A stretch of DNA of 64,000 bases. Origin: Escherichia phage EK010. The translations under genes were made by a program, and so were the position numbers. The DNA is taken from sequence record NC_070981.1, one strand, 5' to 3'. Shown piece by piece: positions 92-28,967 of the stretch. The notes beneath the pieces were generated by a model. The model saw only the letters and a program-made list of their open reading frames with translations, made no database searches and was not told where the DNA came from. Every line of letters begins with the position of its first letter. Positions within the stretch are counted from its first letter, which is position 1.

Positions 92-1309
92 ATGTTCCCT
101 GTAACACTTCAAAGCTGGAAAGAATCAGAAGACGTTGTAACTGTTTGGCCTCCTTGTTATGGTTTCCTGAAAGCAGGTTACTATCAGGGTGGTGATTATG
201 ATGAAGATGAAGATGGCTATCCTGACTACTACAACGCATATGACAGCAACTACGGCTGGAATATCCGCATTAAGGTGTGGAGTGAGGGTATGATGGTTCG
301 TCAAGGCACTGCTGAAGAGAACGTTCTTGAAAACATGATGCCCATGTCTGAAATCAAGTACATCTGGAACTCTGGTACACACCTTCCCGCTTATGGTGTA
401 AAACGTTATGGTGATAAAGAGCCTATTACCACCCAGTATTTCCGCGAAGGGTTGGAGAATGGAGACCCTCGTCCTCCTTCTCACGTAGAAACATGGGCAG
501 AAGAAAACAATCGCCCGGATGTTACTGATCGTGCTGTAATGGAAGCCTTTGAAGCATTCATGGATAAAGATCTTGACTCGTGTCTGGTATGGCATGAAGT
601 AGGGTTCATGGGTGTTTGTACTGATGGTTGCCCTGCTGATCGCGCTCTGTTCTATCTAATGCTGAATCGTACATTCTATACAGATGATGAAAAATCTGCT
701 GTGTATGAAATGTTGAACAAGATGTATAAGAAAGGTTGGTCTCCTTTAGCCTCTCTTGCATTCAGCCGACTGATCAACCCTTCAGTGGATGTGTTCGGTA
801 ACGAACGTGTTGCTTTAACAGGGAATGATTACGATTCGTGTATCTTCCAAGCATCTCTGTATACAGTAGGTGTTGGTAGTACGATGATTGAGCCTCGCCA
901 GACCAAATGGCGACAGTGTGAATACACTGAAGGTGAGGGACACCTACGTGATGAAGACTTCTCCAGTCTGATCTACCGTAGTGAAGGTGTGCGTGATTGT
1001 CGAGTGAATAACTCGATGTTCTTACCAATCCTTCTTCCTCAGTATTGTAATCTACCAGAGGGTGAGCGTCCGGTCATCACAGAGAAGTCACTCTTGGTTG
1101 AATTTATCCGAGAAGTGGCTGAATCTGAAACATCTTTTGCTAAAATTGTATTCGGTTATAACTGGAACAATGAAACAGCTTCAGCTCGAAGCTATAATAT
1201 GTATAACATTATTAGTAACATGTCCAATGGACTAACCGATAGTGTTTATGCAGTACGTCCCTCAGAAGAGTGGGAAAACATTTTGGAAAAATTATTCTTC
1301 AATAAATAG
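92..1309 (+). CDS. hypothetical early protein (405 aa)
   Basis: ATG ORF from track; GAGG RBS about 7 nt upstream; no motif recognised. Confidence 0.6.
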   Translation: MFPVTLQSWKESEDVVTVWPPCYGFLKAGYYQGGDYDEDEDGYPDYYNAYDSNYGWNIRIKVWSEGMMVRQGTAEENVLENMMPMSEIKYIWNSGTHLPAYGVKRYGDKEPITTQYFREGLENGDPRPPSHVETWAEENNRPDVTDRAVMEAFEAFMDKDLDSCLVWHEVGFMGVCTDGCPADRALFYLMLNRTFYTDDEKSAVYEMLNKMYKKGWSPLASLAFSRLINPSVDVFGNERVALTGNDYDSCIFQASLYTVGVGSTMIEPRQTKWRQCEYTEGEGHLRDEDFSSLIYRSEGVRDCRVNNSMFLPILLPQYCNLPEGERPVITEKSLLVEFIREVAESETSFAKIVFGYNWNNETASARSYNMYNIISNMSNGLTDSVYAVRPSEEWENILEKLFFNK

Positions 1310-1317
1310 AGGCGAAT

Positions 1318-2268
1318 ATGTCAATCTCCGCATCGATTGCTCCGGTAACACCAGCAGAGAACTTCGGTGAGTCAGTGTTCAAAGGAAGAGCTTGCTTTGG
1401 TACTTTTAACTGTATGCACATGTACTCTGTTACAGACATTAATGGTGAAAGTCTTAACCAAACAAGCCTTCGTGACAGAACTTCAGAAATTGAAGTTATT
1501 AACTTCTGGCCTCACAATTTTTATGGCGTACCAGCTAAAGATATCGAAAATGCTTTAGTTGAAGCAACAGACATTTTTAATTCAATGTCTTGCTATAAAG
1601 ATATGTTCTCTGTCACTTCGGTGAATTCAATTGCCGTGAACCTTCGAAACCATCCAGCAGACAAGGTGTTTACTGGACTAATGACCATCCGTAGCTATTT
1701 GGATGGTGATTTTAATGGAATGGAGTTCCTTCAGGAAGGCGTACAAGACAAGGAAGAGTTGCTTAAGCGACAACGAATCGGTTTAGCTCTACGCCTAGCT
1801 GGTTTAAGTCGTAACTTCTTTGGTCGCTGGTGTTATAGTAATGACGTAGACTCAACTGATGAGTCAGCAGCGACTTATTTTGATGGTGACATGAGTGCAA
1901 TTGCATTTCTGCCACTAATTTGCACCACTGATGAATTTTCTGAAAACGTATGGGTTCAGAATGTGTTCGGTGTTGATGATAACCTAGATGGTTATGTACG
2001 AAACCATAATGATGGAGTTCTCCGTCGTATGGCACGTCGTCGTGACCAAGACCCTGACCATTACGAGAGTATGAGTGAATGGTTACGTCTCTGGTCAACT
2101 TGTGCAGGTCACAAGAGAGAAGTATTAGATCAGCGTATGGATAGAATTACTGTTCGTAGTTTTATTGAACGTCTGATGCAAGCAGTACCTTCCTCAATGA
2201 CACCAGAAGAAGCTGGTGCCCGTGTTGTTTCCCTTTTTGATGAACTCGTGGAGTATTACAATGACTAA
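1318..2268 (+). CDS. hypothetical early protein (316 aa)
   Basis: ATG ORF; GAGG RBS; tightly packed after previous gene. Confidence 0.6.
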   Translation: MSISASIAPVTPAENFGESVFKGRACFGTFNCMHMYSVTDINGESLNQTSLRDRTSEIEVINFWPHNFYGVPAKDIENALVEATDIFNSMSCYKDMFSVTSVNSIAVNLRNHPADKVFTGLMTIRSYLDGDFNGMEFLQEGVQDKEELLKRQRIGLALRLAGLSRNFFGRWCYSNDVDSTDESAATYFDGDMSAIAFLPLICTTDEFSENVWVQNVFGVDDNLDGYVRNHNDGVLRRMARRRDQDPDHYESMSEWLRLWSTCAGHKREVLDQRMDRITVRSFIERLMQAVPSSMTPEEAGARVVSLFDELVEYYND

Positions 2269-3067
2269 GCGCGCTTTCCTTATTGGCTCTGACCCTGAAA
2301 TGTTTGTTCGTACTGCTTCCGGTATTATCACCTCTGTGGCTGGTAAGCTGGGCTGTTCTAAAGATAATAAAATTGATCTGGCTCCTGATGTTCGTCTTCA
2401 AGAAGACAACGTTCTGGCTGAGTTTGATATTAACCCACAGAAAGGGTTTGAAGCGTTTGATGATAATATTCAGCGTGGTATTGATCTGACTAACAAAGTT
2501 CTCAATGAACGTGGCATGGAGGCAGCACTTGGGATTAGCTCTCATGTGTTCACTTCAGAAGAACTTGAATCATTCCACCCGTCAGCTTTTGTATTTGGCT
2601 GTACTCCTGATTTCAATGCCTTCACTGGACAAAAGAACCCTTCACCAGTCGCAACCGATAAGGGTTTGCGTACTGCTGGGGGTCATGTGCACCTTGGTGT
2701 CTCCGGGACTTTAGAGATTACTCGACAAACTCAAATGATGTTGGGTGTGTTGTGTGATTACTTCCTGTCCTTGCCAGCTGTGATCATGGATAAAGACACT
2801 CGTCGTAAAGAGTTGTACGGAAAGGCTTCTGCCATTCGCTACAAAGATTACGGTATTGAATATCGTTCTCTTTCTAACTTCTGGATTGGTGATAAGTCCA
2901 CTCGCAAGTTTGTTTATGAGCAAGTGGATAAGGTTGTTCAGGGTTGTGATATGGAAGTGTTGATGTCACTTCACTCTCGCCTTCCAATTGAAAAGCTTCA
3001 TAACATCATCAACAGCAACGATGTTAAAGAAGCGGATAAATTCTCCTCTAAACTCCAGATTGTATAA
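2261..3067 (+). CDS. candidate glutamine-synthetase-like amidoligase (COOH-NH2 ligase), divergent
   Basis: Start moved to internal ATG with GGAG RBS 7 nt upstream; N-terminal 'GSDPEMF' resembles the GS 'GPEPEFF' carboxylate motif; later 'GGHVHLG' H-x-H motif. Confidence 0.35.
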   Translation: MTKRAFLIGSDPEMFVRTASGIITSVAGKLGCSKDNKIDLAPDVRLQEDNVLAEFDINPQKGFEAFDDNIQRGIDLTNKVLNERGMEAALGISSHVFTSEELESFHPSAFVFGCTPDFNAFTGQKNPSPVATDKGLRTAGGHVHLGVSGTLEITRQTQMMLGVLCDYFLSLPAVIMDKDTRRKELYGKASAIRYKDYGIEYRSLSNFWIGDKSTRKFVYEQVDKVVQGCDMEVLMSLHSRLPIEKLHNIINSNDVKEADKFSSKLQIV

Positions 3068-3076
3068 GGTGATATT

Positions 3077-3703
3077 ATGAGCTTGTTAAGAGATTTTCAA
3101 CACTATTATTGTGGAACATGGATTGCTCAGCGATCACCTGATGGTAAAAACCTCCCTCTATATGTGCTTGATGTTCGTCAGCAAGGTAACTTTGATATCG
3201 ACGACTACTCACACGACGCTGAAATGTCTTTAGTGTTTGAGGCGGAACGCTGGACTAAAAACTCTGAAGGTCAGTTTGAACGTCAGATTGTTAGTAATAT
3301 CCCAGTGTTTGATCACAGCCTCATTCTAGAGTCTCCAGATGTAGGATACCTTCAGCATGGTAATAACATGGTGAGCTGGACCCATATCAACCCTGTTCGT
3401 CAGCGAGCTAAAGGCTTGATGGGGAATAAACTTCGTGGTGCTGCACCTTCTCTCGGACGTTCGATTCCGGGTGATTTGGTGTACAACTTGTTTAATCCAG
3501 AGTTTGAAGGGTTGGTTACTCGTTTCATCTATATCAACCCTGTCGATGGAAAAGTGTATTACAAAGGGGCTTACGTTGGAAACGTGCTTCTTGAAGCTGG
3601 CTATGGCGACAACGGTCGCCAATCTTTAAACCTTCTGGAGAAGTTCAAGCATATTTCTTCAGACCTGTCATCATATAATGTAGAGTTGGTGGAATCATTA
3701 TGA
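3077..3703 (+). CDS. hypothetical protein (208 aa)
   Basis: ATG ORF with AAGGTGA RBS; sits between the two amidoligase-like genes. Confidence 0.6.
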   Translation: MSLLRDFQHYYCGTWIAQRSPDGKNLPLYVLDVRQQGNFDIDDYSHDAEMSLVFEAERWTKNSEGQFERQIVSNIPVFDHSLILESPDVGYLQHGNNMVSWTHINPVRQRAKGLMGNKLRGAAPSLGRSIPGDLVYNLFNPEFEGLVTRFIYINPVDGKVYYKGAYVGNVLLEAGYGDNGRQSLNLLEKFKHISSDLSSYNVELVESL

Positions 3704-4800
3704 CAACCGTAGCACAAGTTTTTGGATACCGTAACCCTCGCTTATCTGAACCACATCCAAGTATTGCTTTTCAGTGTGGTGTAGGTATTGAGTTAGAAGT
3801 CGAAGGTACAATTGACATTGACGCTGATATGTGGGTTTGTACTGAAGATGGCTCTCTTCGTGATGGTTGTGAATTAGTGTGTGCACGACCTTACAACGGT
3901 GAAGAATTACTTCGTGCTATTAACAATCTGAGTGAAGCAGTACAGGACTCTGGAGCCGAGGGAACTTGGCGCTGCTCCACTCACGTTCATATGGATATGC
4001 GGGACGCTGATAGTAATATCCTTAAGAAAGTTATTCTTGGGTGGACGTTCTATGAAAAGATGATGTTCAAATGTTCTGGATATCATCGTTACCGTAGTAA
4101 CTTCTGCCCAGCTTTTGCTGTTGTTCAAGCTCAAGTTATGAATGCTTCATCAGCGTTCAACCGAGATGGGGAAGATTTCTTCCGTACTCTTGTTAATAGC
4201 TGGGACAAGTATACCTCCCTTAACCTGTTGCCTCTATCTCAGTTTGGTTCTGTTGAGTTTCGTATTTCAGAGCCGAAGTGGAAAAAGAGTCAGCTGCTAA
4301 ATCTGGTCAATCGCTTCTTGGTTCTCAAGAAACTGGCTGTTGAATATGCAGATTTAGATAATGAAGCTTATGTTGAGAAGTTGAATGAGCTGCGCTTCGC
4401 TCCTATGATTCAACATCTACCTCTAGACTATACTCCAAGAGATAGCGATCTCACTGAAGGGTATCGTCTTGCCCGTGATATTCTGTTCTGTCGTGAGCAA
4501 TCTGTAACTTTGGTTGGTCGTGTTCGTGTGCAACAGACTGGCCCTGATGGTGAAGTCCTTATCAACTTACGTGATATGAATGACTTCTATGGTTTCTTGG
4601 GATATGTGCGCGGTAATGCCAACACTGTCTATGAAGAGATCATGACCTACTACACTCCTCAGATTGAAAGCACTCGAATCGCAACGGTTCGTGAAATTCG
4701 TCACATGTTTGCATTGATGCGTGAATCAGGTAGCAGTGATAATAACATCACTGATTACATTCCAGACCATCTGGAAATGCAATTAGAACGACTGCTGTAA
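3700..4800 (+). CDS. amidoligase (glutamine-synthetase-like COOH-NH2 ligase family)
   Basis: Motifs 'GIELEVEG' (E-x-E), 'EDGSL', 'GCELV', 'STHVHMD' (H-x-H); start overlaps previous stop (ATGA). Confidence 0.5.
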   Translation: MTTVAQVFGYRNPRLSEPHPSIAFQCGVGIELEVEGTIDIDADMWVCTEDGSLRDGCELVCARPYNGEELLRAINNLSEAVQDSGAEGTWRCSTHVHMDMRDADSNILKKVILGWTFYEKMMFKCSGYHRYRSNFCPAFAVVQAQVMNASSAFNRDGEDFFRTLVNSWDKYTSLNLLPLSQFGSVEFRISEPKWKKSQLLNLVNRFLVLKKLAVEYADLDNEAYVEKLNELRFAPMIQHLPLDYTPRDSDLTEGYRLARDILFCREQSVTLVGRVRVQQTGPDGEVLINLRDMNDFYGFLGYVRGNANTVYEEIMTYYTPQIESTRIATVREIRHMFALMRESGSSDNNITDYIPDHLEMQLERLL

Positions 4801-4877
4801 CACAATGGGCGCTCTGATAAAGGGCGCATTTAAAGGTTAATTAGATGAAAGGGTTTACCCTTCAGGTGGATTAGAAA

Positions 4878-6911
4878 ATTTGTGGTATCGTATTAGCTGG
4901 CGGCAACATGACCTCAACAGATTTGGATATTTTCAACCAACTTCTGTATGCTGGTGTTTTCCGGGGACAGCACTCAACTGGTGTGTTTGGTCAGCGTAAA
5001 GGTGAAAAGCAAGTCTTCTCTTATAAAGAAGCTCTTCCTTCTTATGCTTTTATGCTCCAGACAGAATATACAAATATTACCAAAGGGCTTACGAACTACG
5101 TGGTTCCTCCTTCGTGGATTGTTGGTCACAGCCGACATGCCACTCGTGGGGCTGTCAATGCTCGAAATGCTCACCCATTTACTCACGGGGATATTACTCT
5201 GGTTCATAATGGAACCCTGTTAGATCAAGATCTCCTTCCTGACAGTAAGCGTTTCGAAGTTGATAGTGAAAACATCTGCCACTCAATTAATACCATTGGA
5301 GCAGCAGAGACTATCCAAAAACTGGATGGTGCATTCACTTTAATCTGGCATGACGCCAAAGATAACACGCTTCACATTATCCGTAATGATGAGCGTCCTT
5401 TCCACCTAGCCCGTTGTGGTTTAGATTGGTTTGGGGCTTCTGAAGAAGCTATGCTTATGTGGATTTTAGAGCGTTCTAAATCCCACAAGAACCGTATCAA
5501 TGACCACTTCGAGTGTAAAGTGGGAACTGAGTATATCTTTGATGTGTCTAACAGTCGTATGACTCTGGTTCAAGAGGTGGAGCACAAGCTTCCGGTTTTT
5601 ACGGTAACGAGTCGCTGGGGCGGCTATTACTCGAACTCCTCTCTATATCAGAACCAACAGACAAACAAATCAAGCAGCAGCACAAGCGACATTTACGGAA
5701 ACAAAGACGACAAGCCCGGCGTGACAAGCGGAGACATTCGTCGTCGTAAAGCGATTGAAGACCAGAACAAACTGGCTGCCGATCGTGGTCTTCCTTATCG
5801 TCGTGATGGTCGTGTGGATATTATTCCTCACGAGTTCCATGCTTATAACAACACAGATCGTGGTAAGATGGTTGGTTACATCTACGACGATAAAGCCCAA
5901 GAGTATGTCGAAGGGGATGTTCACAACGTAGCCAAAGATGAATATCTTAAGGCTCTTGAAAACCCAAAGGTAGTATATCGCGGGACGATTGCTTGTATCT
6001 CCGAAGTGGACAGTATGATTCGCCTCGTACTAACTTCAGGGCTGTTTGTTGATGCTACAGATAAGGAGCCTCAAAGCACTACTGCTGATTTTGATGATGA
6101 TATCCCTTTTGATGCAGAGGACTCCTTCATCACTAAAAATGGTGTAGAAGTCACTCGTAAGTTCTGGGAATCTCACTCTCATGGTGATTGTGGTGGTTGT
6201 GATAAGCACATTGACTGGAAAGATGCTCGTAAGGCTGTGTTTGCTTATCAAGCATACTGGCATCCAGAATGCTTCGAAGCGTTATCTAAAACCTCTGAAG
6301 ATGAAGAAGATGTGCCTTTGGGTGTATGTGCTATCTGTGGTGAAGTCAAGACTGATTTCGAGTTTGACAACGAAATGAGTAAACTTCGTGGTGAAGACGT
6401 TTGTTATATCTGCTCCAAAGAAATCAAAGATAAAGTAAAGAATGTTACTCTATCTGAAGGTTATATTTGGACTAAAGCAGTAGACACAACCAACCCACGT
6501 CGTCCTGAAGTAGCTGTTCGTGTTGATGAACGTATGCTTAGCCGTATGATCGTAATGGTTAGCTCAGCAAAACGTTCAGGGGATATCACACTTGCAGATG
6601 TTCCTAATTCGTATTTGGAAAAACGTGGTGGTGATACTTATGCCATCTCTGTTTATGGTCCAAAGAATGCCCCAAAGGAGGTACCCGCTGAGAAAGCGGA
6701 GACATTTCCAGAAAAGTCAACCTCTCTCCGAAAAACAGTTGTCAGTTACGATGGACAACGAACAGCTGAGTTTACAAAAGCCCTCTGGACTTCAATTGGG
6801 TTTTGTGCAGTCTGTTATAAACAAATTCCGTGGCGTGATGCAGAAACTTGCTCACTAAACAAAGAAAATAGAGTGATCTGTAATTCAGATTACTGTAAAG
6901 GTAAACACTAA
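4878..6911 (+). CDS. class-II (Ntn) glutamine amidotransferase-domain protein with C-terminal Cys-rich zinc-ribbon-like motifs; probable AUU start
   Basis: Track ORF starts at ATG 4908, but in frame just upstream is stop-AAA-ATT-TGT-GGT-ATC-GTA giving '(I)CGIVLAGGNM...', the GAT-II N-terminal Cys-nucleophile signature; AGGTGGA RBS at 4864-4870, 7 nt before ATT 4878; downstream 'FRGQHSTG' and 'HNGTL' fit PurF/GlmS-type domain; C-terminus has three C-x2-C pairs. Confidence 0.55.
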   Translation: MCGIVLAGGNMTSTDLDIFNQLLYAGVFRGQHSTGVFGQRKGEKQVFSYKEALPSYAFMLQTEYTNITKGLTNYVVPPSWIVGHSRHATRGAVNARNAHPFTHGDITLVHNGTLLDQDLLPDSKRFEVDSENICHSINTIGAAETIQKLDGAFTLIWHDAKDNTLHIIRNDERPFHLARCGLDWFGASEEAMLMWILERSKSHKNRINDHFECKVGTEYIFDVSNSRMTLVQEVEHKLPVFTVTSRWGGYYSNSSLYQNQQTNKSSSSTSDIYGNKDDKPGVTSGDIRRRKAIEDQNKLAADRGLPYRRDGRVDIIPHEFHAYNNTDRGKMVGYIYDDKAQEYVEGDVHNVAKDEYLKALENPKVVYRGTIACISEVDSMIRLVLTSGLFVDATDKEPQSTTADFDDDIPFDAEDSFITKNGVEVTRKFWESHSHGDCGGCDKHIDWKDARKAVFAYQAYWHPECFEALSKTSEDEEDVPLGVCAICGEVKTDFEFDNEMSKLRGEDVCYICSKEIKDKVKNVTLSEGYIWTKAVDTTNPRRPEVAVRVDERMLSRMIVMVSSAKRSGDITLADVPNSYLEKRGGDTYAISVYGPKNAPKEVPAEKAETFPEKSTSLRKTVVSYDGQRTAEFTKALWTSIGFCAVCYKQIPWRDAETCSLNKENRVICNSDYCKGKH

Positions 6912-6922
6912 GAGGTATAGTT

Positions 6923-7156
6923 ATGGAAGTTCGTAAACTGATGTTGGATAACGTGGTAACTACCCGTCGTATTCCGATGACAAGCACAGGATGTGATAAC
7001 CTCCGAGCAATTCAGAAGTGGATGCAAGAAGGTATTGGGAAGCTGGTTGACTCTCCAGTAGAAATCCCTTTTCCAACCGTCATTAATAACGTGTTGGCTG
7101 ACTATGTTAAAATGAAGGGGATTAAAGTTGAGCCTCATGTCAAGCAAGGGAGCTAA
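6923..7156 (+). CDS. hypothetical protein (77 aa)
   Basis: ATG ORF with GAGG RBS. Confidence 0.5.
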   Translation: MEVRKLMLDNVVTTRRIPMTSTGCDNLRAIQKWMQEGIGKLVDSPVEIPFPTVINNVLADYVKMKGIKVEPHVKQGS

Positions 7157-7358
7157 GCCTCACCTGACAATGCTGGAGTATCAACAACTCCGACTTCAAC
7201 AACTGGTAACGGAGCAGCGAAAGCTGTATCCGTTTGCTTTTAACCTAATTGATTCACCAAGCGATGACCAAGAAGACGAGATGTTCGCCAAGTATTGGGA
7301 AATCGAAGTTAAAATTCAATCCTGTCGTAACGAAATTCTTAAACTAAAAGGTATCTAA
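7137..7358 (+). CDS. hypothetical protein (start uncertain: 7137 or 7170)
   Basis: Track ORF begins at TTG 7128; first in-frame ATGs at 7137 and 7170; overlaps previous gene. Confidence 0.4.
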   Translation: MSSKGAKPHLTMLEYQQLRLQQLVTEQRKLYPFAFNLIDSPSDDQEDEMFAKYWEIEVKIQSCRNEILKLKGI

Positions 7359-7360
7359 AA

Positions 7361-8596
7361 ATGACTACTCGTATCCGTGTTCTTCCGTATGGCCCTTCTG
7401 ATTCTGTTAACGCTCTGGTAACTGCCATTAACGATACTATCCGTGATGAACGTATCAACGCTAACATAATGGGTCTTCTTTCAGAGAACAGTCGCTGGCG
7501 TTCTCGTGAGGGTGATGTGGTTGTGAACTACGGGAACCGTCGCTATCCTGAATCCTTCTTTGGTTCTGCAACTGTCCTTAACCGTACCGCAGCCTTACAT
7601 ATGGCAGCGAACAAACGTCGTGCTTTCAGCGTGATGGACCAAGCAGGTGTTAAAACTGTTGAGTATACAGATGTTCAAGAGATTGCTCAGGAGTGGTCAA
7701 ACTCTGGCAACATTGTGTATGAACGTCATGAACTGACTGGTCACTCTGGTTCGGGTATCGTTGTTGTTGAGCCTCGTGATTCAATTGGTCAAGCTGAACT
7801 GTACACCAAAGGTATTCAAGGTCCACGTCGTGAATGGCGTGTCCATGTGTTCAAAGGTGTTATCACCTATGTTCAGAAGAAGATTCGTCGTAACGGCTAT
7901 CGTGAAGACCCTAACTATCGTGAAGATGTTCGTAACCATCACACTGGTTGGGTTTACTCAAGTTCCTTCACAGACGCTCCAAATGATGCATCTCTGATCA
8001 ACGCAGTGAAAGCTGTTGAATCAATGGGTCTGGATTTCGGTGCAGTTGATATCATCACCAAAGGTCAAGAAGCGTGGGTACTGGAAGTTAATACAGCACC
8101 GGGCCTGACTGGTACAACTCTGGATACCTACCGTCATAACATTCTTGAGTTTGTTAAAGCTCAAAACCCTCTCTATACCCCTCAGTATAAAGTGGTTTAC
8201 CAGACTCCGATTGAAGATGGAGACGGTGAGTTGGTGGATGATATTGAAAGTGCTGATGATGAAAACTTTGCACTGGAAGGACAAGTAGCACAGCCGATTG
8301 ATTCAGTTGATGTGGTTCCTGAAGAAATGCAACTGGAAGGTCAGATGAATACTCAAACTATTCGTAATGCACCTACTGGCTACACTTTGTCTCGTGGCTA
8401 CTGGATTGCAAATATCCGTCATGTCCACAACAACCTGCAACCGAATGCAATGTCTGCCAATGTCATCCTGTTCTGTGATGGTCGTAACTTCTACCGCAGT
8501 GGTTGGAACGTTCCGGTCAATCCAGTCCAGATTCATAACCCTCGCAAGTTAGAGTCTGTCAATGTTGAAGGTAGCGAAGTAGCAGTAACTCTGTAA
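7361..8596 (+). CDS. ATP-grasp ligase (RimK/glutamate-ligase-like)
   Basis: 'GHSGSGIVVV' glycine-rich loop and 'WVLEVNTAPGL' Mg/ATP-binding E-x-N motif typical of ATP-grasp enzymes. Confidence 0.5.
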   Translation: MTTRIRVLPYGPSDSVNALVTAINDTIRDERINANIMGLLSENSRWRSREGDVVVNYGNRRYPESFFGSATVLNRTAALHMAANKRRAFSVMDQAGVKTVEYTDVQEIAQEWSNSGNIVYERHELTGHSGSGIVVVEPRDSIGQAELYTKGIQGPRREWRVHVFKGVITYVQKKIRRNGYREDPNYREDVRNHHTGWVYSSSFTDAPNDASLINAVKAVESMGLDFGAVDIITKGQEAWVLEVNTAPGLTGTTLDTYRHNILEFVKAQNPLYTPQYKVVYQTPIEDGDGELVDDIESADDENFALEGQVAQPIDSVDVVPEEMQLEGQMNTQTIRNAPTGYTLSRGYWIANIRHVHNNLQPNAMSANVILFCDGRNFYRSGWNVPVNPVQIHNPRKLESVNVEGSEVAVTL

Positions 8597-8627
8597 TTAA
8601 ATTAAATTAAACAAAAAGGAATTTGTA

Positions 8628-8870
8628 ATGTTGTCTATCGAAGATTTGATCAGCCGTGGAATGACCGAAGAAAAAGAGCCTCTGATTGTAGGCTCTCGTA
8701 AAGCTATCAACCAACTCTGTGAAGAGTTCGGAATCACAAATAAGAGAATGATTGGTAATCAGTTCTCTGCAATCATCACCTTCCTCAAACGAGGTGATAA
8801 ATATTCAATGGAATGTGCTGAGCGTATCATCGCAATTGCACAAGCAGATAAGGGAGTAACAAATCTATGA
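8628..8870 (+). CDS. hypothetical protein (80 aa)
   Basis: ATG ORF; AAGGA RBS. Confidence 0.5.
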   Translation: MLSIEDLISRGMTEEKEPLIVGSRKAINQLCEEFGITNKRMIGNQFSAIITFLKRGDKYSMECAERIIAIAQADKGVTNL

Positions 8871-9052
8871 ATAAATACACAATCATGTTTCGTACAATGT
8901 CAGCAGAAGGAAATATTCAATCTCTGGACATTCAAGCAGATCGCTTTGAATCACTTGGAACAAGTGTTAACTTCTTCCGAGGTACAGAGCTAGTGGGTAC
9001 ATTCCAATCTGATGTGTTGACTGGTGTGATCAAACACTTCGAAGTAGAATAA
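8867..9052 (+). CDS. hypothetical protein (61 aa)
   Basis: ATG overlaps upstream stop (ATGA). Confidence 0.45.
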   Translation: MNKYTIMFRTMSAEGNIQSLDIQADRFESLGTSVNFFRGTELVGTFQSDVLTGVIKHFEVE

Positions 9053-9111
9053 TTTGCTTTAGCCTCTTCGAAAGAGGGGGCTAGTTCGAATTTAGCTTAC
9101 AAAGGAGTTTT

Positions 9112-9648
9112 ATGGAATGGAGAGAACTTCCCGGATATGAGGGACAGTATTCAATCTCTGATAAAGGGGATATCCGTAGTAATTACCGATGGTATCTTAA
9201 CCCTAAGACACTAACACGCCATAAGAAAGATCGTGAATTGATTATGACACCCAATGTTGGTTCAGCGGGTTATGCTCGAATCAAATTAAGTGATCAGATT
9301 TTTCATCCGTATCACAGATTGGTAGCTATTGTTTGGGTAAGCAATCCAGAAAACAAACCTTTCATCAACCATAAAGATGGAAACAAACTGAACAACAACC
9401 CTTCTAATCTAGAATGGGTTACTTGTCAGGAAAACAATATACATGCATATCAGACAGGTTTAAACTCTGGTATGCTAAGAGCAGAAACCCTTTCACATGT
9501 GTGGAATTTTATATCTCCCGAAGGGGTTCAAACCGAAATCACTAACCTTTGTAAATATTGTAGAGAGAATGATTTATCTAAGTCCTCTATGATAGCAGTA
9601 CACAAAGGAACTCAATATCAACATAAGGGTTGGAAAAGAAATGAGTAA
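9112..9648 (+). CDS. HNH homing endonuclease
   Basis: 'NHKDGNKLNNNPSNLEWVTCQENNIH' HNH motif; AAGGAG RBS; paralog of 20238-20732. Confidence 0.7.
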   Translation: MEWRELPGYEGQYSISDKGDIRSNYRWYLNPKTLTRHKKDRELIMTPNVGSAGYARIKLSDQIFHPYHRLVAIVWVSNPENKPFINHKDGNKLNNNPSNLEWVTCQENNIHAYQTGLNSGMLRAETLSHVWNFISPEGVQTEITNLCKYCRENDLSKSSMIAVHKGTQYQHKGWKRNE

Positions 9649-10075
9649 TGAGAAAGTTTTAGTAGCAACTTACGGCAGCTTGAGAAAAGGTCAACACAAC
9701 CACGCTATCAATGCTCGTGCAGGTGGTGTGTCTATCGGTGAAGGGTGGACAGTAAACAACTGTAACCTGTATCAGTATTGCACAGCATACTTCCCAAGTG
9801 TATCTCTGGTGCATAACAGCAATGGTAAGCCTGTTCGTGTAGAGGTCTTTGAGACAACCCAAGCTGGTCTGGAAGGCCCATATGACGGTCTGGAAGGTCA
9901 CCGTGGCAATGATAACCCATACACCTTTTACAAACGTACATTGATCCCAGTATTATTGGACAGTGGTGAAACTGTGGAAGCGTGGATTTACCATATTGAC
10001 GAAGAACAAGATGTTCTTGTTGAATCTGGTGACTGGACAGCATATCTGGCAGGTGAGAAGGATGACAGTAACTGA
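9641..10075 (+). CDS. gamma-glutamylamine cyclotransferase-like protein (AIG2/GGCT fold)
   Basis: N-terminal 'VATYGSLRKGQHNH' matches the GGACT 'YGTLKRGQPNH' signature; candidate catalytic Glu in 'RVEVFE'. Confidence 0.6.
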   Translation: MSNEKVLVATYGSLRKGQHNHAINARAGGVSIGEGWTVNNCNLYQYCTAYFPSVSLVHNSNGKPVRVEVFETTQAGLEGPYDGLEGHRGNDNPYTFYKRTLIPVLLDSGETVEAWIYHIDEEQDVLVESGDWTAYLAGEKDDSN

Positions 10076-10268
10076 CAGGCAGAAGTTAAGAAAGCTGGAA
10101 TCTGACTACTTGAAGATGCGGTGGAAAATTAATCGCTATGAAAAGTTTGTCAGTATGCTCACACCTGATAAGCACTCTGAAGAATTTATTCACAGAACAA
10201 AGCAAACCTTGCAGGGTTTTAGAAACTTGCAAGATGATGTGTGGGAAGAAATACGATCGTTTTACTAA
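10062..10268 (+). CDS. hypothetical protein (68 aa)
   Basis: Internal ATG of track ORF 9963-10268 with AGGTGA RBS; overlaps end of previous gene. Confidence 0.4.
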   Translation: MTVTDRQKLRKLESDYLKMRWKINRYEKFVSMLTPDKHSEEFIHRTKQTLQGFRNLQDDVWEEIRSFY

Positions 10269-10303
10269 GAAGATTGCTCAAGGAATTCCAAGGAGGATAG
10301 AGC

Positions 10304-12094
10304 ATGTCAAAGATCATTTTGGGAGACACAGGCTGTAAAGAGTGTATCTCTCATGGTCGTGATAAGACCCGCAATCACATGATTCTCTTCCGAAATGAAG
10401 AGTCCGGTGAGGAGTGGGGTTCATGTAACAGATGTGGTGCGTATGAAATCTTCGAGAAAGGAACGACGCCCACTCCTAATGAAAAGAAAGAGCTGTCCCC
10501 TGAAGAACTCCGAGAAGTCTTAGACGATTGCTTAGAGCTTCCTCAGGGAGAGTTGACTCGTCGCTTAATTCCTAAAGCTGTATCTGAACGTTATGGATGC
10601 CGTATCGGTTTAAGCCAAACAGATGGTCAAACTCCTGACAGCTACTTCTTCCCTCGTGAACGTGATGGGAACATTGTTGGATATGAAGTAAAACTTCTAG
10701 ACAGCAAGAAGTTCTATTATGTAGGTAATGTGAAAGAAGCCGACTTGTTTGGTATGGCTCAAGCACAACGTGGTGACGTATACAACAAGAAACTCTTCAT
10801 CTTTGAAGATCCTCTCTCTTGTATGTCTGGGTTCCACGTACTTACCGCGTTTACAAACGCAACTAACATCAAACCTGCTTGCGTCTCTCTTCCGTTCGGT
10901 GCAGGTTCAATCTCTTCTGTATTATCAAGAAACCGTGATTTTATTAATGGTTTCGAGGAGATTGTACTCTGCATGGACAATGATGATGCAGGTGAGATTG
11001 CTTTAACTAAGGGTCGTTCTCTGTACCCGCATGTTAAGTTTGCAAGGATTCCAAAAGGTACGTTCACTTATAACGGACAAGAAAAGGAAATCAAAGATGC
11101 AAACGACATGTTACTTGCAGGGAGAGGTCAAGAGCTTTTCAACAATCTGAAATATTCAGCTAAGCGGGAATCTCCTGCTGGAGCTGTTACAGTTTTTGAT
11201 TGCCTCGAAGATGCTCTGAAGAAAGCGGAATGGGGTATCCCTTATCCGTGGAAAACTCTCAATGACATGACCTTTGGTATTCGTTGGGGAGAGATGGTTG
11301 CAATCGGTGGTGGTGTTGGTTCAGGTAAAACCTTAATCGCACATGAACTGGTAGCATGGCTTTGCCTTGAGCACGGTTTTAATGGTGGTGGCTTCTTCTT
11401 GGAAGAGAAGGTAGGCATGTCTGTTAAGAACATTGCAGGTAAATCCGCATCCATCCCATTCCACCGACCAGATGTTGAGTATGAAGAAAGTCAGCTACGA
11501 GATGAAGCACTTCGATACGCTGATAAGTTTTTCTTGTACGACAACTTTGGGCAGAATGAGTGGGAAGACATTAAGCAGTGTATTCGCTTTTGGGTAGTTG
11601 AGAATCAGTGTAAATTTATCATTCTTGATAACATCACTGCATTGGTATCTCACTTAACTCCGTCTGAGGTAAATACAGAAATCAGCAAGATTGCTTCAGA
11701 GCTTGCTGGTATGTGTAAGGAACTGGACTTCACTGCTTTTGTGTTATCTCACTTGAATGCTCCGGCGGGCGGTGCCCCTCACGAAGAAGGTGGTCAGGTT
11801 AAAGAAGTACAGTTTACTGGCTCACGTTCATTAATGCGCTGGTGTCAATGTATTATCGGTTTCGAACGTAATAAACAAGCGGATGGGTTAGGTAAAAACT
11901 TGTCAATCATACGTCTGCTCAAAGAACGTAACTACGGACAGACAGGGGTTTGCTATACCAAATACATTAACGAAACAGGTCGTCTTGTGGAACGAGAAGA
12001 TCATGAAGTTGATGAAGATAATCCGTTTACAGTCACCAATGGAGAAGATGCAGCTTCCTTACTTTCACAAGAAGGGGAGGCACGTCCATGGTAA
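10304..12094 (+). CDS. DNA primase-helicase (T7 gp4-like)
   Basis: N-terminal zinc finger 'CKECISHG...CNRCGAY', TOPRIM-like 'DNDDAGE', Walker A 'GGGVGSGKT'; AGGAGG RBS. Confidence 0.8.
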
Positions 12095-12638: not shown

Positions 12639-14099
12639 ATGATTAAGATTCCATTATCTGAATTGAACCTTCAAGAAGGAGAAGCCCTCAGTGTAGGGCT
12701 TGACCTGATTCGTAATTTGATCAGAGATAACGTAGTCCCTGATGGTATCTATCCTGTTATTGCAGGTGGTGCTATCCGTGATACGTTCTTCCAAAATCGA
12801 ACTCCGAATGATGTTGATATCTTCCTAGTTCAAGGAGGGCTTCGTTGGAACACTCGCCAGGAAAATAGCCCTGCTAACGTAGGTAATGCTGCACTGTTCC
12901 TTGACAACTTCTTATCTTGGACAGAAAGTAAGGGGCTTCAGGTTACATCTCGCCTAGTTCAGCCTGTTAACGGGACAACCTATGCTGAAGCGCTTTTCAC
13001 TTTCCAAGAGATTCTGGAAATTGAGATTGATCAAGTGAAGATTCAGATGATGATTAATCTCCCTCTGGATATGGATACTTTGAGTCGTCGCTTTCCTATG
13101 ATCTGTCAAGGGTTTATGACTCTTGGTGATTTGTATGTGTCAAACGAAGGTTTGTTTGCAATGTCATACACTCGTGACATTCCTGTGGTATCTAGTCGTG
13201 AAATGAAGTATGTTCACAAGAAGTGGCCTGAAGCAACTGTTGCAGTTTATAGCAGTTCTACCGAATATATGCACCTTGCAATGGGAGCTTTCGGTGAGCC
13301 AGAAGTTCACCTGATTAGTGATTTAGTTGGACCTATGGCTGGTGTAAATTTATATCAGAATCAGCGTCGTCATTATACCCTGAAGATGATGGAAACTATA
13401 TTAAACATTCCTCAGGAAAGGGGTCGTAGCTATCTGGACGAGGAAGTTAACCTACAGACAGAATGGTCTAGTGGATTAACCACTATAGGTGCTGAAGCAA
13501 TTACGCAGCCTTGGACTCCGGGAACTAACAGACGAGATCTTCAAGCTTTTAATGAAGAAACTTCTCGAACTGTTCGAGGAGGTGTTGTAGGGTATAACGT
13601 ACAACCTCATGAAAGACCTCGTGACACTTTTACTGGCAGTTTTGGTAGTGCACACTCTTCTGGAATGGATACTCGTACATGGCATGTCCAAGGAGGAACT
13701 GCTCGTCCTATTCCTTCTCCGTCAATGGATGATTTGCAGCGTTCTCGTCGTTCATGGGAAACAGTAAGCTCTGTTGTTCAGGGTCTACGTGCTAGTGATG
13801 TAGAACGTGTAGAAGTTGGCGATGTGCTGGAAGATGGATTGCTGGCGATAGCGGCTCGTGAAGCTGCTCGTACTGGCTTTGCATCTTTAGCTAATGATGC
13901 TAACGAAGCTCCTCGCCCTCGCCGTCGTAGCGGTTTAGCTCACTCTAACACTGAACTAGGTTCAGAACTCCGATCTGCTGCTCGTGAGCTATCTGGTGAG
14001 CTTCACAACAACCTAGCAGGTGTTACACTATCTCGTGAAACAGCTCGTAATATGATTAATAATTTGGCATCATCTGTACAAGGAAACAGAAACTCATGA
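12639..14099 (+). CDS. Pol-beta-superfamily nucleotidyltransferase (CCA-adding/poly(A) polymerase-like head) with Ser/Arg-rich low-complexity C-terminus
   Basis: 'IAGGAIRDTFF...NDVDIFL' matches GGAVRD + DxD catalytic motif; C-terminal half GC-rich and compositionally distinct. Confidence 0.5.
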   Translation: MIKIPLSELNLQEGEALSVGLDLIRNLIRDNVVPDGIYPVIAGGAIRDTFFQNRTPNDVDIFLVQGGLRWNTRQENSPANVGNAALFLDNFLSWTESKGLQVTSRLVQPVNGTTYAEALFTFQEILEIEIDQVKIQMMINLPLDMDTLSRRFPMICQGFMTLGDLYVSNEGLFAMSYTRDIPVVSSREMKYVHKKWPEATVAVYSSSTEYMHLAMGAFGEPEVHLISDLVGPMAGVNLYQNQRRHYTLKMMETILNIPQERGRSYLDEEVNLQTEWSSGLTTIGAEAITQPWTPGTNRRDLQAFNEETSRTVRGGVVGYNVQPHERPRDTFTGSFGSAHSSGMDTRTWHVQGGTARPIPSPSMDDLQRSRRSWETVSSVVQGLRASDVERVEVGDVLEDGLLAIAAREAARTGFASLANDANEAPRPRRRSGLAHSNTELGSELRSAARELSGELHNNLAGVTLSRETARNMINNLASSVQGNRNS

Positions 14100-14629
14100 G
14101 TCTTTTAGGTTCTCAAGAATTACACAGCGTTATTGATAGTGGCTTTTTAGATGCGGAGCATAAATATGTTAACGCTGCTAGTGTGGATATCCGTATTGGT
14201 GATACTATCCTTGTTGAAGAACAGGCTGATGGTATTGTTGACATTGATGCTAAAGAAAACCTCAAGTGGAAAGAAGTGAAAATCCCTGAAGATGGCATTG
14301 TCATTACTCCGGGACAGTTCTTCTTAGCTCACTCTATGGAAGAATTTAACCTTCCAGATAACATCTCAAGCCTGTTTGTACTCCGCTCCTCGATGGCTCG
14401 TTGTGGTTTGAACCACCTACATGCTGGTTGGGCTGATGCAGGGTTTAACAGCAGTAAGCTAACCTTTGAGTTCCATAACGTTACCCACAATCACAGCTTA
14501 CGAGTTCGTGCTGGGATGCGTGTTGGTCAAATGGTTATGTTTGAACACTCTCACGCTGGTGATGATTCCTATGCAGTGAAGGGTCGTTACAATGGCAGCA
14601 ATGGTGTAGTTGCTTCTAAAGGTGTATAA
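14096..14629 (+). CDS. dcd: dCTP deaminase
   Basis: 'VDIRIG', 'LRSSMARCGL', 'GWADAGFNSSKLTFEFHN' align with bacterial Dcd motifs. Confidence 0.7.
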   Translation: MSLLGSQELHSVIDSGFLDAEHKYVNAASVDIRIGDTILVEEQADGIVDIDAKENLKWKEVKIPEDGIVITPGQFFLAHSMEEFNLPDNISSLFVLRSSMARCGLNHLHAGWADAGFNSSKLTFEFHNVTHNHSLRVRAGMRVGQMVMFEHSHAGDDSYAVKGRYNGSNGVVASKGV

Positions 14630-15121: not shown

Positions 15122-15451
15122 ATGTTAGATTTGAGTAAAGTGGCCCCGCCATCTGAAGAGATTAGCAAAGCTAAAGTTATGCAGCAGTTCTATCATCGGG
15201 ATATGCTTGGTCGTTATATCAAGAATCGTGATGTTGTTGCATGGTCTATTGGAAATCAAGGTTATCTTCTCAAAGTGTTGCAAGTTACTGGCTCAACAGC
15301 CAAGCGAGTCAAAGTCTATGACCCTGAAATGGGGCGTTCTAAATCAGTAGACCCTCAGAATTGCATTGTTATCACACAACAGGTCATGGATAACATTGCT
15401 CGTAATGTAGCTAATTCAACTAACTTAGAAGGGGATGCACCTAATGCATAA
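15122..15451 (+). CDS. hypothetical protein (109 aa)
   Basis: Internal ATG with AGGAGAG RBS; preceded by AAATGTATA motif. Confidence 0.55.
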   Translation: MLDLSKVAPPSEEISKAKVMQQFYHRDMLGRYIKNRDVVAWSIGNQGYLLKVLQVTGSTAKRVKVYDPEMGRSKSVDPQNCIVITQQVMDNIARNVANSTNLEGDAPNA

Positions 15452-16010
15452 TAATGTCTTCGACTTACCTGAACTAACACGAGTGGGTTCTAGCAACCCA
15501 TTCTCTACTACTGACTCTTCTATTTCTCGTCTTGAGGGAATGAATAAACTGATTAGTGGTAACAGCTTAGAACACATCTTATGTGATGTGCAAGCTAACC
15601 TTGAACTTCTACACATCAAAGCAAAGAACTACCACTGGAACGTCTCTGGAGCTGGTTTCCAAGGTGTTCATGGTATGTTCGATGAACTAGAAGATTATGC
15701 TCGTGAGGCAGGCGACCGAATAGCAGAGCGTATGCGCTTCCATTGTGTTAAGGTGGATGCCACTGCCAGTAACTATTTAGGTCACGCTTGGTTCCGAGAA
15801 GGTAACGCTGATCTCGACATGGACGGTATGCTTTCCGACATGTGCATGACTCTTATGTGTATCATTGAGAAGATGGATGAGTTTGATTCAGACTTGTGCA
15901 CCTATCCAGTGGACCAGAGTATGCTTCAAGAAATTAATGAAGGTCTTGGCAAGTTCTGTTACTTCGTCAAGAGCAACATGTCCCACTCCAGTGGTGATGT
16001 GTCTTACTAA
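15435..16010 (+). CDS. Dps-like ferritin (DNA-binding ferroxidase fold)
   Basis: 'NYHWNVSGAGFQGVHGMFDELEDYAREAGDRIAERM' matches the Dps signature; start may be ATG 15444. Confidence 0.6.
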   Translation: MHLMHNNVFDLPELTRVGSSNPFSTTDSSISRLEGMNKLISGNSLEHILCDVQANLELLHIKAKNYHWNVSGAGFQGVHGMFDELEDYAREAGDRIAERMRFHCVKVDATASNYLGHAWFREGNADLDMDGMLSDMCMTLMCIIEKMDEFDSDLCTYPVDQSMLQEINEGLGKFCYFVKSNMSHSSGDVSY

Positions 16011-17151: not shown

Positions 17152-17619
17152 ATGATACAAGACGACTTGGAATACAACCCTAAGACTGGAGACTTCTTCT
17201 GGAAGAACACAAAAGGTCGAAGGGTTAAAGGAAATCAAGCTGGGTATGTATCTTCTCTAGGTTATCGTTACATTGAGCATGAAGGGAAAAGCTACAGAGC
17301 TTGTCGCCTTGCTTGGTTCTTTGTTCATGGAAAGTTTCCTGAGTTTGAAATTGACCACATCGACCAGAACAAACTTAATGACTCAATTGATAACCTAAGA
17401 GATGTGAATCCATCTACTAACTGCCATAACAGAAGGCAGTACGATGTTGATAACAAGATAGGAAATCTTCCTAGAGGTGTGTATCTTCGTAAGACAGCTT
17501 CTGGTGATAAATATCGAGCCATTATCGGCGTCAAAGGTAAGAATATATACTTAGGGACTTTTGCTTCTTGTGAAGAGGCAGAAGAAGTTTACAACAAGGA
17601 GAAGTTGAAGTATGTCTGA
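17152..17619 (+). CDS. HNH homing endonuclease with AP2-like DNA-binding domain
   Basis: 'IDHIDQNKLNDSIDNLRDVNPSTNCHN' HNH motif plus AP2-like 'GV...GDKYRAIIGVKGKNIYLGTF'; AAGGAAG RBS; directly upstream of ThyX. Confidence 0.65.
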   Translation: MIQDDLEYNPKTGDFFWKNTKGRRVKGNQAGYVSSLGYRYIEHEGKSYRACRLAWFFVHGKFPEFEIDHIDQNKLNDSIDNLRDVNPSTNCHNRRQYDVDNKIGNLPRGVYLRKTASGDKYRAIIGVKGKNIYLGTFASCEEAEEVYNKEKLKYV

Positions 17620-18262
17620 TTTTTTAAAAGCAACACTGGTAGAGCACATGGGTTCCGACAAATCTGTGGTCAATGCAGCAAGGGTTTCCTTTGGTGTGAC
17701 ACGAGATGGTGATCTGAACGAACGTGACGAGCGGTTGATTAAATTCTTAGCTCGGGAACGTCATGTGACTCCTTTTCGACACCCTCAAATCACCTTTCGG
17801 TGTAAGGCTCCCATTGCAATTGCTAGACAACTCAATAAACACCAAGTTGGATTCTCATGGAACGAAATGTCCCGGCGGTATAAAGATGGAGCAGTTGAAC
17901 TCTTCATCCCTAAAGAGATTTTTGAAAGACCTTCGGACCTCCATGCAGGTGCGGGGAATCTCCTTACCACAGGAGCACAAAACTCTGCACTAGTTCTGAT
18001 TAATCGGGCATACGAAACAGCTCTTGAGTCGTATGATGAATTGATTAAGTTTATCGCTCCAGAGCAAGCTCGATTTGTTCTACCTCAAGGTATGATCACG
18101 GAGTGGGTGTGGACAGGTTCTTTATATGGCTGGTCAGAGTTATGTCGTCAGCGACTGTCCGACCATGCTCAGTATGAAGTACGAGTGTTCGCATCAACGG
18201 TCGATGAAGAGCTTCGTAAACTTTTCCCAATCTCATGGGATGCACTACGTGAAGCCCACTAA
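17612..18262 (+). CDS. thyX: flavin-dependent thymidylate synthase (ThyX family)
   Basis: 'LVEHMGSD...AARVSF', 'KAPIAIARQ', 'NEMSRRY', 'SDHAQYEVR' match ThyX conserved blocks. Confidence 0.65.
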   Translation: MSDFLKATLVEHMGSDKSVVNAARVSFGVTRDGDLNERDERLIKFLARERHVTPFRHPQITFRCKAPIAIARQLNKHQVGFSWNEMSRRYKDGAVELFIPKEIFERPSDLHAGAGNLLTTGAQNSALVLINRAYETALESYDELIKFIAPEQARFVLPQGMITEWVWTGSLYGWSELCRQRLSDHAQYEVRVFASTVDEELRKLFPISWDALREAH

Positions 18263-18957: not shown

Positions 18958-19139
18958 AATGTTTTAAATGTGAATCAACTCTTCTCCATTTGGACTCGAA
19001 AGTAATACGGGAGCTTGCCAAAGGCTCCCCGACTAAAGGGAAGAATAAGAAGTTTGTCGAAATTAAGGTTATAGGTATCCATTGCTCAGAGTGTAAATCC
19101 TGTAGCTTCTTATATGAAGAACACGGAGGTAGGAAATGA
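18942..19139 (+). CDS. candidate zinc-ribbon protein with no canonical start codon
   Basis: 66-codon open frame filling the gap before phoH, ending in TGA that overlaps the phoH ATG; C-x2-C-x37-C-x2-C-x2-C; only ATC/CTG available as in-frame starts; -1 frame relative to upstream ORF. Confidence 0.3.
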   Translation, partial: GQINLKCFKCESTLLHLDSKVIRELAKGSPTKGKNKKFVEIKVIGIHCSECKSCSFLYEEHGGRK

Positions 19140-25694: not shown

Positions 25695-25845
25695 ACGATA
25701 CAAAGTCTGGCTAGACGAAGGAGCTGAATATCCTGATGGTTCTGGCTGGAAAGTTGTTCTAGAAACAGACGACAGGGAGGAGGCTGAAACGAAAGCTGAA
25801 TCCTTCAACTACTCATATTACGAGGACACATACGAGAATGGCTGA
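25678..25845 (+). CDS. small acidic protein, paralog of 24931-25110
   Basis: Internal ATG; shared motif with 24931 ORF. Confidence 0.4.
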   Translation: MVAQSKRYKVWLDEGAEYPDGSGWKVVLETDDREEAETKAESFNYSYYEDTYENG

Positions 25846-28629: not shown

Positions 28630-28967
28630 TGGAAGTCCTTAATTTCTACAAAGAGGGGTTGAAGATTCCAGAAGGCGCTATTTACATAGGAAGATATAGT
28701 GCCAAGCATGGTCTACCACAATCTAAGTATCACAACCCAATAAAGCTCCAAGAGGGTGAGCCAAGAGGTTCTACTCTGGATAAGTATAGGAAATATTTAT
28801 GGGGTGAGATAAAAGCTGGCAGAATAACTGTGGAAGAGCTTGCAAATCTGTATGGAACAAACCTTGTGTGTTATTGTAAGCCCAAACCTTGTCATGGGGA
28901 TATCCTTATGGCTGCTATAAAATGGGCAAAAGAAGAAATGGATAATGCTATAACTAAGGAAAGATGA
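28629..28967 (+). CDS. hypothetical protein with '[13 protein letters not shown]' motif
   Basis: ATG overlapping upstream stop. Confidence 0.5.

Follow-up and report, generated by a model that had tools for sequence, protein, structure and literature searches.

The window analysed here, a 64,000-nucleotide stretch of Escherichia phage EK010 (NC_070981.1), carries near its left end a tightly packed block of plus-strand genes that is the phiEco32/LUZ24-type phage amidoligase cassette, an already predicted system from which it shows no difference in kind. Five of the genes encode recognisable enzymes (Table 1): two glutamine synthetase (GS)-like ligases, here called CNL and AL2, a class-II glutamine amidotransferase (GAT-II) of the N-terminal nucleophile (Ntn) type, an ATP-grasp ligase, and a GGACT-type gamma-glutamyl(amine) cyclotransferase. 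An earlier interpretation made from the letters alone (the sequence-only reading) had delimited these five genes and assigned their families and folds from catalytic motifs; the genes lie where it placed them, every motif it quoted is present in the translations, and its assignments are right, as judged by family matches and by catalytic residues conserved across 50-72 distinct homologues. Because of this conservation, we predict that all five enzymes are active and under purifying selection. The cassette extends beyond them to about ten genes, adding the paralogues U1 and U2, a protein named SH3x2 and small open reading frames (ORFs). At about 10 kb it takes up roughly 13% of the Kuravirus genome with all active sites conserved, and it is widespread, occurring in Kuravirus, in LUZ24-like therapeutic Pseudomonas phages and in marine podoviruses. 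The cassette was predicted in 2009. Identifying its product would assign a role to a sizeable group of phage genes and could reveal new chemistry of host takeover or defence evasion, and genetic work on it is now feasible in the Kuraviruses that infect E. coli K-12 (Bas86-93). Our additions to its description are the U-family paralogues, SH3x2, an ATT start codon in the GAT-II gene, and the alternation of GGACT with Peptidase_C26.

Table 1. Features of the amidoligase cassette in the window, in positional order.
Feature	Position	Strand	Support
U1, 405 aa, paralogue of U2	92-1309	+	PHROG 13063; no Pfam match
U2, 316 aa, paralogue of U1	1318-2268	+	motifs R-x-C26-F-G and P113-A-D-K...R125
CNL, GS-like carboxylate-amine ligase	2261-3067	+	Pfam PF14395 COOH-NH2_lig, E 2e-8; PHROG 3815, E 1e-112
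SH3x2, 208 aa, two SH3/Tudor-like beta-barrels	3077-3703	+	predicted model, pLDDT (predicted local distance difference test) 86
AL2, second GS-like ligase (Amidoligase_2)	3700-4800	+	Pfam PF12224, E 3e-8
Shine-Dalgarno sequence AGGTGG	4864-4869	+	read in sequence, 8 nt upstream of the GAT-II ATT start
GAT-II, class-II (Ntn) glutamine amidotransferase domain, long linker and three zinc-ribbon-like Cys modules	4878-6911	+	Pfam GATase_6, E 2.7e-14
Small protein, 77 aa, DUF7195	6923-7156	+	Pfam PF23825, E 3e-19
Small protein, 76 aa, lineage-specific	7128-7358	+	PHROG 13464; 10 loci, same position
ATP-grasp ligase, RimK-like group, C-terminal extension of ~150 aa	7361-8596	+	NCBIfam MptN, E 2e-9; rimK_fam, E 6e-7
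Two small ORFs, Kuravirus-like cassettes only	8628-8870 and 8867-9052	+	10 and 7 loci respectively, same position; no Pfam match for 8628-8870
HNH/NUMOD4 homing endonuclease, insertion, not a functional cassette member	9112-9648	+	Pfam NUMOD4 and HNH_3
GGACT/AIG2-like gamma-glutamyl(amine) cyclotransferase	9641-10075	+	Pfam GGACT, E 1e-15

Identity and distribution of the cassette

The window phage is a Kuravirus, that is, a phiEco32-like podophage of E. coli. Over positions 2000-12000 it shares 99.9% identity with Escherichia phage E20-1 and 96-97% with the Kuravirus (Gordonclarkvirinae) group that includes the BASEL isolates Bas86 and Bas87, with more distant members of the subfamily at about 76%. 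The features that define the phiEco32 type are all found in the block: a PF14395 ligase above the gathering score (a family that Pfam names 'Phage phiEco32-like COOH.NH2 ligase-type 2'), a PF12224 ligase with GAT-II as the next gene and GGACT in the same block, an ATP-grasp gene in the operon, and synteny. The gene order matches that of phiEco32 (recovered as locus L005 in the survey below, with a COOH-NH2 ligase 81% identical to the window copy), Clew-1 and UFV-P2. PHROG families already cover all ten block proteins, and the cassette is represented in Pfam, in PHROGs and in many published phage annotations.

The sequence-only reading had stated that comparative genomics predicted such systems and that no experiments had followed. 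This was correct: full-text searches of the literature found no experimental characterisation of the cassette. Papers that cite Iyer et al. 2009 and Hardies et al. 2013 list the cassette in RIO-1, phiEco32, 7-11, PA11, tf, MR299-2, LUZ24, PaP3 and CW02, and use the label 'peptidoglycan modification cassette', with exclusion of superinfection as its proposed role; annotations often read 'putative peptidoglycan modification module'. In marine phage HP1, the cassette genes are reported as 'expressed immediately' on infection. The cassette is inherited together with replication genes and is probably transcribed with them, and scans for sigma-70 promoters and terminators returned no more sites than shuffled sequence. 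PADLOC gave no defence-system protein match.

Scanning IMG/VR with a degenerate pattern built from the CNL alignment yielded 78 loci, of which 50 were complete (at least 3 kb upstream and at least 9 kb downstream). Iterative searches and gene maps of the IMG/VR loci revealed a recurrent order of U, CNL, SH3x2, AL2, GAT-II, ATP-grasp and GGACT. CNL, GAT-II and the ATP-grasp ligase were present in all 50 complete loci and AL2 in 49, and this core was accompanied by a U-type protein in 40, GGACT in 37, SH3x2 in 33 and a primase-helicase in 25; the SH3x2 count exceeds 33 with a family hidden Markov model, which picks up the middle ORF in further loci. In Pseudomonas phage Clew-1 (Bruynoghevirus), the order runs from two proteins of ~320 aa through CNL, a ~180-aa protein, AL2, GAT-II, a small protein, ATP-grasp, AIG2/GGACT and another small protein to the primase-helicase and the DNA polymerase exonuclease subunit. 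The enzymes of the window are 28-43% identical to those of Clew-1, with CNL at 43%, and the primase-helicase is 46% identical.

A rearranged form was seen on contigs of 74-105 kb (L063-L065, L077 and L080), where the order is ATP-grasp, two U-like paralogues, Peptidase_C26, CNL, GAT-II and AL2, with a gene of the uracil-DNA-glycosylase family and a class I ribonucleotide reductase as neighbours. Since these viral contigs are much larger, the cassette moves between very different phage types.

Active sites of the enzymes and features of the accessory proteins

Among 28 diverse homologues of CNL, the residues D11, E13, E54, R137, H142, H144, R193, E200 and R202 are invariant, as are E31, E33, E35, H95, H97, E119, R130, E186 and R188 in the alignment of AL2 homologues, which were found in 290 phage records. 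Profiles of both ligases run against PDB sequences identified no homologue with a solved structure, and neither protein has a match in NCBIfam. For the GGACT protein, 50 homologues conserve the YGSL motif, E68, D82, E85 and Y97, with Y11-G12-x-L14 at 90% or more and both E68 and E85 invariant.

The ATP-grasp protein has its nearest relatives in the RimK-family alpha-L-glutamate ligases, although it scores below the family cut-offs. Its sole Pfam match is a weak one to RimK (E 7e-4; 19.7 bits against a cut-off of 21), and both NCBIfam matches fall far below the curated cut-offs, rimK_fam with 29 bits against 143; the sequences of RimK crystal structures match it. The residues K85, E158, R160, K174, D230, E242 and N244 are invariant (67 homologues for the last four), and residues 336-402 match PHROG 20552.

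Focusing on GAT-II, the '(M)CGIV' N-terminus put forward by the sequence-only reading is real, though the codon before the Cys, at 4878, is ATT. The start site comprises an in-frame TAG two codons upstream, AAA, the ATT and the Cys codon (ATT-TGT at 4878-4883). Both the ATT and the AGGTGG upstream sequence are common to all E. coli Kuravirus loci (also L001, L003-L006, L010, L012 and L071). Of 76 GAT-II ORFs from 74 loci, 70 have a Cys directly after the initiation codon, as M-C-G in 61 and as ATT-Cys in nine. Because the start is ATT, GAT-II is truncated and its catalytic Cys lost both in the ORF lister, which opens the frame at ATG 4908, and in the deposited annotation of at least phage 4E8. 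In phiEco32, a protein begun at the first canonical start codon would open 112 codons downstream of that Cys. IF3 discriminates against AUU, a rare initiation codon, and the ATT may keep GAT-II expression low.

Across 66 GAT-II sequences, C1, R86, H110-N111-G112 and D129-S130 are invariant. The protein thus has the makings of a class-II amidotransferase, with an N-terminal Cys nucleophile directly after the initiator, an N111-G112 oxyanion hole, and R86 and D129 for glutamine binding, residues that we take to be the equivalents of those in PurF; the positions that bind the alpha-amino and alpha-carboxylate groups of glutamine are invariant. The three Cys-pair modules described in the sequence-only reading are present at residues 438, 484/509 and 643/668, and the C-terminal CxxC...CxxC module occurs in most lineages, except in one clade with short GAT-II proteins. 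Neither Pfam nor NCBIfam recognised a synthase (acceptor) domain in the protein, whose C-terminal 450 aa hold zinc-ribbon-like modules only. GAT-II may cooperate in trans with another protein, or it may be a hydrolase.

U1 and U2 have a series of invariant motifs in common, which in both proteins runs from C-[FY]-G near residue 22-26 through N-S, P-A-D-[RK]...R and W-x-Q to G-[YH]-x-R-[ND]. In an alignment of 41 U1 homologues, M1-F2, C22-Y-G-F, PADR at 181-184, W273/Q275 and H284/R286 are invariant; a U1 profile search of 1.8 billion proteins returned only 24 representatives, mostly from phage contigs, and the place of U1 upstream of the ligase is the one seen in other cassettes. Both align by hhalign with the marine Ua family, the single upstream protein of ~300 aa that a large set of contigs from uncultured viruses encodes (E 4.8e-5 for U1 and 6e-4 for U2), the U2 alignment spanning 221 columns that include R-x-C-F-[GA] and PADR. 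An upstream family that was first named 'Ub' proved to be Peptidase_C26 and not a U-family member. The U families gave no hhalign signal against CNL or AL2, a comparison without power since CNL against AL2 likewise reached only E 0.03. U2 possibly has a very divergent fold of the glutamine-synthetase/guanido-kinase type.

SH3x2 contains a conserved basic loop at residues 106-118 (PVRQRAKGLMGNK), modelled as disordered, in which R108, K112 and G113 are invariant among 31 sequences; it is homologous to Clew-1 gp22 and is probably an adaptor or carrier, not an enzyme. Pairwise BLAST gave no significant match between U1, U2, SH3x2 or the DUF7195 protein and its positional counterpart in Clew-1; profile methods and shared motifs alone link them. 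The DUF7195 protein was seen in 10 loci, all Kuravirus-like, and always between the GAT-II and ATP-grasp genes.

The homing endonuclease gene at 9112-9648 is absent from most related phages, whose alignments cover 94% of the query. It sits just before GGACT and overlaps the GGACT start by 8 nt. In Bas86 (L001 6262-7570), a different HNH gene lies inside the COOH-NH2 ligase gene, which is annotated as a two-piece, intron-like join. Homing endonucleases move in and out of the cassette.

Probable gamma-glutamyl cleavage and candidate acceptors

Every complete locus encodes a putative enzyme for gamma-glutamyl amide cleavage: GGACT alone in 32, Peptidase_C26 alone in 13, both in five, and neither in none. 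In the loci that lack GGACT, the Peptidase_C26 gene (Pfam E 1e-12) lies beside the cassette. This complementarity is significant by Fisher's test with phylogeny ignored (p = 2e-8), and the pattern holds for 45 distinct CNL sequences. The Peptidase_C26 family includes gamma-glutamyl hydrolases as well as PuuD. Because each complete locus has one or the other and none is without both, cleavage of a gamma-glutamyl amide looks obligatory, and the alternation of two unrelated enzymes for it is, to judge from their families, the strongest available clue to the chemistry. The general proposal of the sequence-only reading, in which an amide conjugate of gamma-glutamyl or peptide-like type is first built and then trimmed, is supported, and the pattern strengthens it.

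We propose, with a probability of roughly 0.6, that the cassette is a multi-step, ATP-dependent assembly line for amide bonds that acts on an acceptor other than phage DNA: a small molecule of the cytoplasm, a precursor of the cell envelope, or a protein. What we observe is the gene content, the conserved catalytic residues, the synteny and the GGACT/C26 complementarity; from them we infer an order of reactions, substrates and a biological purpose. In the cytoplasm of the infected cell, CNL, AL2 and the RimK-like ATP-grasp ligase would each form a single amide bond, as GS-like and ATP-grasp ligases generally do, and at least one of these bonds would be a gamma-glutamyl amide. The Ntn amidotransferase would take a glutamine or gamma-glutamyl head group, either to supply ammonia to an activated carboxylate or to hydrolyse the gamma-amide. 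An obligatory removal of the gamma-glutamyl group would then fall to GGACT, releasing 5-oxoproline and the free amine, or to the C26 hydrolase. U1 and U2, with their conserved Cys, and SH3x2 would serve as cassette-specific accessory subunits or carriers.

Several points weigh against this assembly line. The whole pathway is drawn from enzyme families. Peptidase_C26 has a GATase-1-like fold and could be a glutaminase instead of a gamma-glutamyl hydrolase, and the complementarity statistic takes no account of shared ancestry. The loci were collected by CNL homology and so represent cassettes with CNL. Finally, the resistance of Gordonclarkvirinae to restriction despite many sites, considered below, leaves some chance of a DNA-related or defence-evasion role in that lineage.

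Three other readings concern where such chemistry would be directed. In the papers that follow Iyer et al. 2009 and Hardies et al. 2013, the proposed target is peptidoglycan: amino acids would be added to the free carboxylates of cytoplasmic UDP-MurNAc-peptide precursors, or these would be amidated, and the altered wall would keep other phages from superinfecting or would shift the sensitivity to lysis. The assembly line takes this form if its acceptor is an envelope precursor. Peptidoglycan does hold a gamma-glutamyl linkage and free carboxylates, and the hosts named in tblastn summaries for AL2 and SH3x2 among annotated phage genomes are all proteobacteria. The argument is purely inferential, however, since the literature yielded no muropeptide data, and Pfam and NCBIfam found no Mur-ligase, MurT/GatD-like or AsnB-type synthase domain in the cassette proteins. 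The gamma-glutamyl residue of peptidoglycan is moreover D-Glu with a substituted alpha-amino group, which GGACT, C26 and GAT-II enzymes are not known to recognise, and in a short lytic cycle only the post-infection wall could be altered; on balance we think this target unlikely. We are similarly doubtful that the cassette tags proteins in the way that RimK modifies ribosomal protein S6 and PafA attaches Pup: glutamate or a short peptide would be placed on a host or phage protein for host takeover or defence evasion, with GAT-II, GGACT or C26 as erasers or processing enzymes. No Pup-like tag protein ending in a conserved Glu or Gln was found; the two small ORFs within 6923-7358 end in ...KQGS and ...LKGI. 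These ORFs are lineage-specific and missing from most cassettes, and four to five ligase-like proteins exceed the needs of simple tagging. Several phage papers class the cassette genes as auxiliary metabolic genes, which would make the block a surrogate gamma-glutamyl cycle that rewires glutamine, glutamate, glutathione or polyamine pools, feeding replication or neutralising packaged DNA, with no dedicated new product. The enzyme set does parallel glutamate-cysteine ligase, glutathione synthetase and gamma-glutamyl cyclotransferase, and also PuuA and PuuD. But the ligases are far from cellular equivalogs, as the NCBIfam and solved-structure searches with CNL and AL2 indicate, and the phage-only accessory proteins in fixed order are unlike an enzyme borrowed from the host, making a purely metabolic role improbable.

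The sequence-only reading had considered DNA or a nucleotide a plausible but unproven target, citing a neighbouring dCTP deaminase, ThyX and a dNMP (deoxynucleoside monophosphate)-kinase-like gene. The first two were confirmed at 14096-14629 and 17612-18262, but no dNMP-kinase-like gene was found, and the P-loop protein at 19136-19873 is PhoH-like. dCTP deaminase and ThyX form an ordinary supply route for deoxythymidine triphosphate. An amino-acid or peptide moiety placed on a base or deoxynucleoside triphosphate would explain the restriction resistance of Gordonclarkvirinae, and in many lineages the cassette lies directly upstream of primase-helicase and DNA polymerase genes. These phages are reported to resist all the restriction-modification systems tested on them, among which are EcoKI, EcoRV, EcoP1_I and EcoCFT_II. 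The window holds 15 EcoRI (GAATTC), 31 EcoRV (GATATC) and seven EcoKI sites, with GAATTC and GATATC at expected levels; because these sites are many, avoidance does not explain the resistance. Against a modified base stand digests of virion DNA from other cassette carriers, neither of them a Kuravirus: that of phage tf was cut by RsaI, HpaI, EcoRV, SmaI and HaeIII, served as a primer-extension template, and was cloned and sequenced directly, and that of the LUZ24-like phage U17 was cut by 11 of 16 enzymes, making it the most sensitive among four phages tested. In addition, a Pfam scan of 30 of the larger ORFs between 92 and 31024, several of which were matchless, detected dCTP deaminase, ThyX, PhoH, DNA polymerase A and similar genes but none of the known hallmarks of hypermodification (base hydroxymethylase, DNA kinases such as 5-HMUDK, aGPT-Pplase, DpdA or another base-exchange enzyme, glycosyltransferase, Mom). 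Selective avoidance across the whole window (1-64000) is strong at other sites, with four CCWGG, GATC at 0.45 of expectation, no CTGCAG against 13.8 expected and one GAGCTC against 16.7 expected, which argues that the DNA is still exposed to at least some restriction enzymes. The BASEL authors likewise suspect other genes, namely a nucleotidyltransferase and the dCTP deaminase, of making a DNA modification. We therefore regard DNA or nucleotides as a very unlikely target of the cassette, contrary to the sequence-only reading, and consider it more likely that Kuravirus restriction resistance is due to other lineage-specific genes. It would be a long shot, too, for the cassette to be a virus-specific, carrier-based tagging machine, including U1/U2 and the invariant-Lys loop of SH3x2, that places a gamma-glutamate peptide on a host defence or replication protein or on phage DNA and so underlies the resistance.

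Other genes were noted downstream. A 486-aa ORF at 12639-14099, flanked by the genes for the DNA polymerase exonuclease subunit and for dCTP deaminase, is annotated as 'nucleotidyltransferase' in Bas86 and has no Pfam match; it is not at the corresponding position in Clew-1. Further along lie a Dps/ferritin-like protein (15435-16010), a calcineurin-like metallophosphoesterase (25838-26458) and a weak sigma-70 region 2 match (28964-29617) that probably represents the phage-encoded sigma factor already described for phiEco32.

Relation to known amide-forming systems

The proposed cycle of building and removing a gamma-glutamyl amide has its closest parallels in the E. coli Puu pathway and in butirosin biosynthesis, in which an ATP-dependent ligase adds a gamma-glutamyl amide that is later removed by a C26 hydrolase or an AIG2/GGCT-like cyclotransferase. 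The pairs are PuuA (a GS-like ligase) with PuuD (a Peptidase_C26 hydrolase), and BtrJ (an ATP-grasp ligase) with BtrG (a GGCT-like cyclotransferase). The parallel rests on established knowledge of these pathways, as their proteins did not match the phage enzymes in family or solved-structure searches. The phage cassette is without the oxidase and dehydrogenase of Puu and without the acyl carrier protein and acyltransferase of butirosin, whereas it has at least three ligases and GAT-II. Similarly, ergothioneine biosynthesis combines a GS-like gamma-glutamylcysteine ligase, EgtA, with EgtC, an amidohydrolase of GAT-II fold that removes the glutamyl group; the likeness lies in a GS-like ligase beside a stand-alone Ntn GAT-II domain without a synthase, and there is a faint EgtC match (E 6e-3). 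That match is far below the curated cut-off, however, EgtB, EgtD and EgtE have no counterparts, and the phage GAT-II bears zinc ribbons. Pupylation, with the GS-fold ligase PafA, the GS-fold deamidase Dop and the tag Pup, shows weak structural similarity, but the phage has no Pup-like tag and no link to a proteasome.

Among individual enzymes, RimK, MptN and CofF are the best sequence relatives of the phage ATP-grasp protein and have its ATP- and Mg-binding residues in common with it, while the phage protein scores 20-37 bits against equivalog cut-offs of 143-350 and has an extra C-terminal region of ~150 aa. Overall, the closest known system is the phiEco32/LUZ24/RIO-1-type cassette itself: apart from the HNH insertion at 9112-9648, which the window copy bears, the two share the five enzyme families, the gene order and the position upstream of the primase-helicase.

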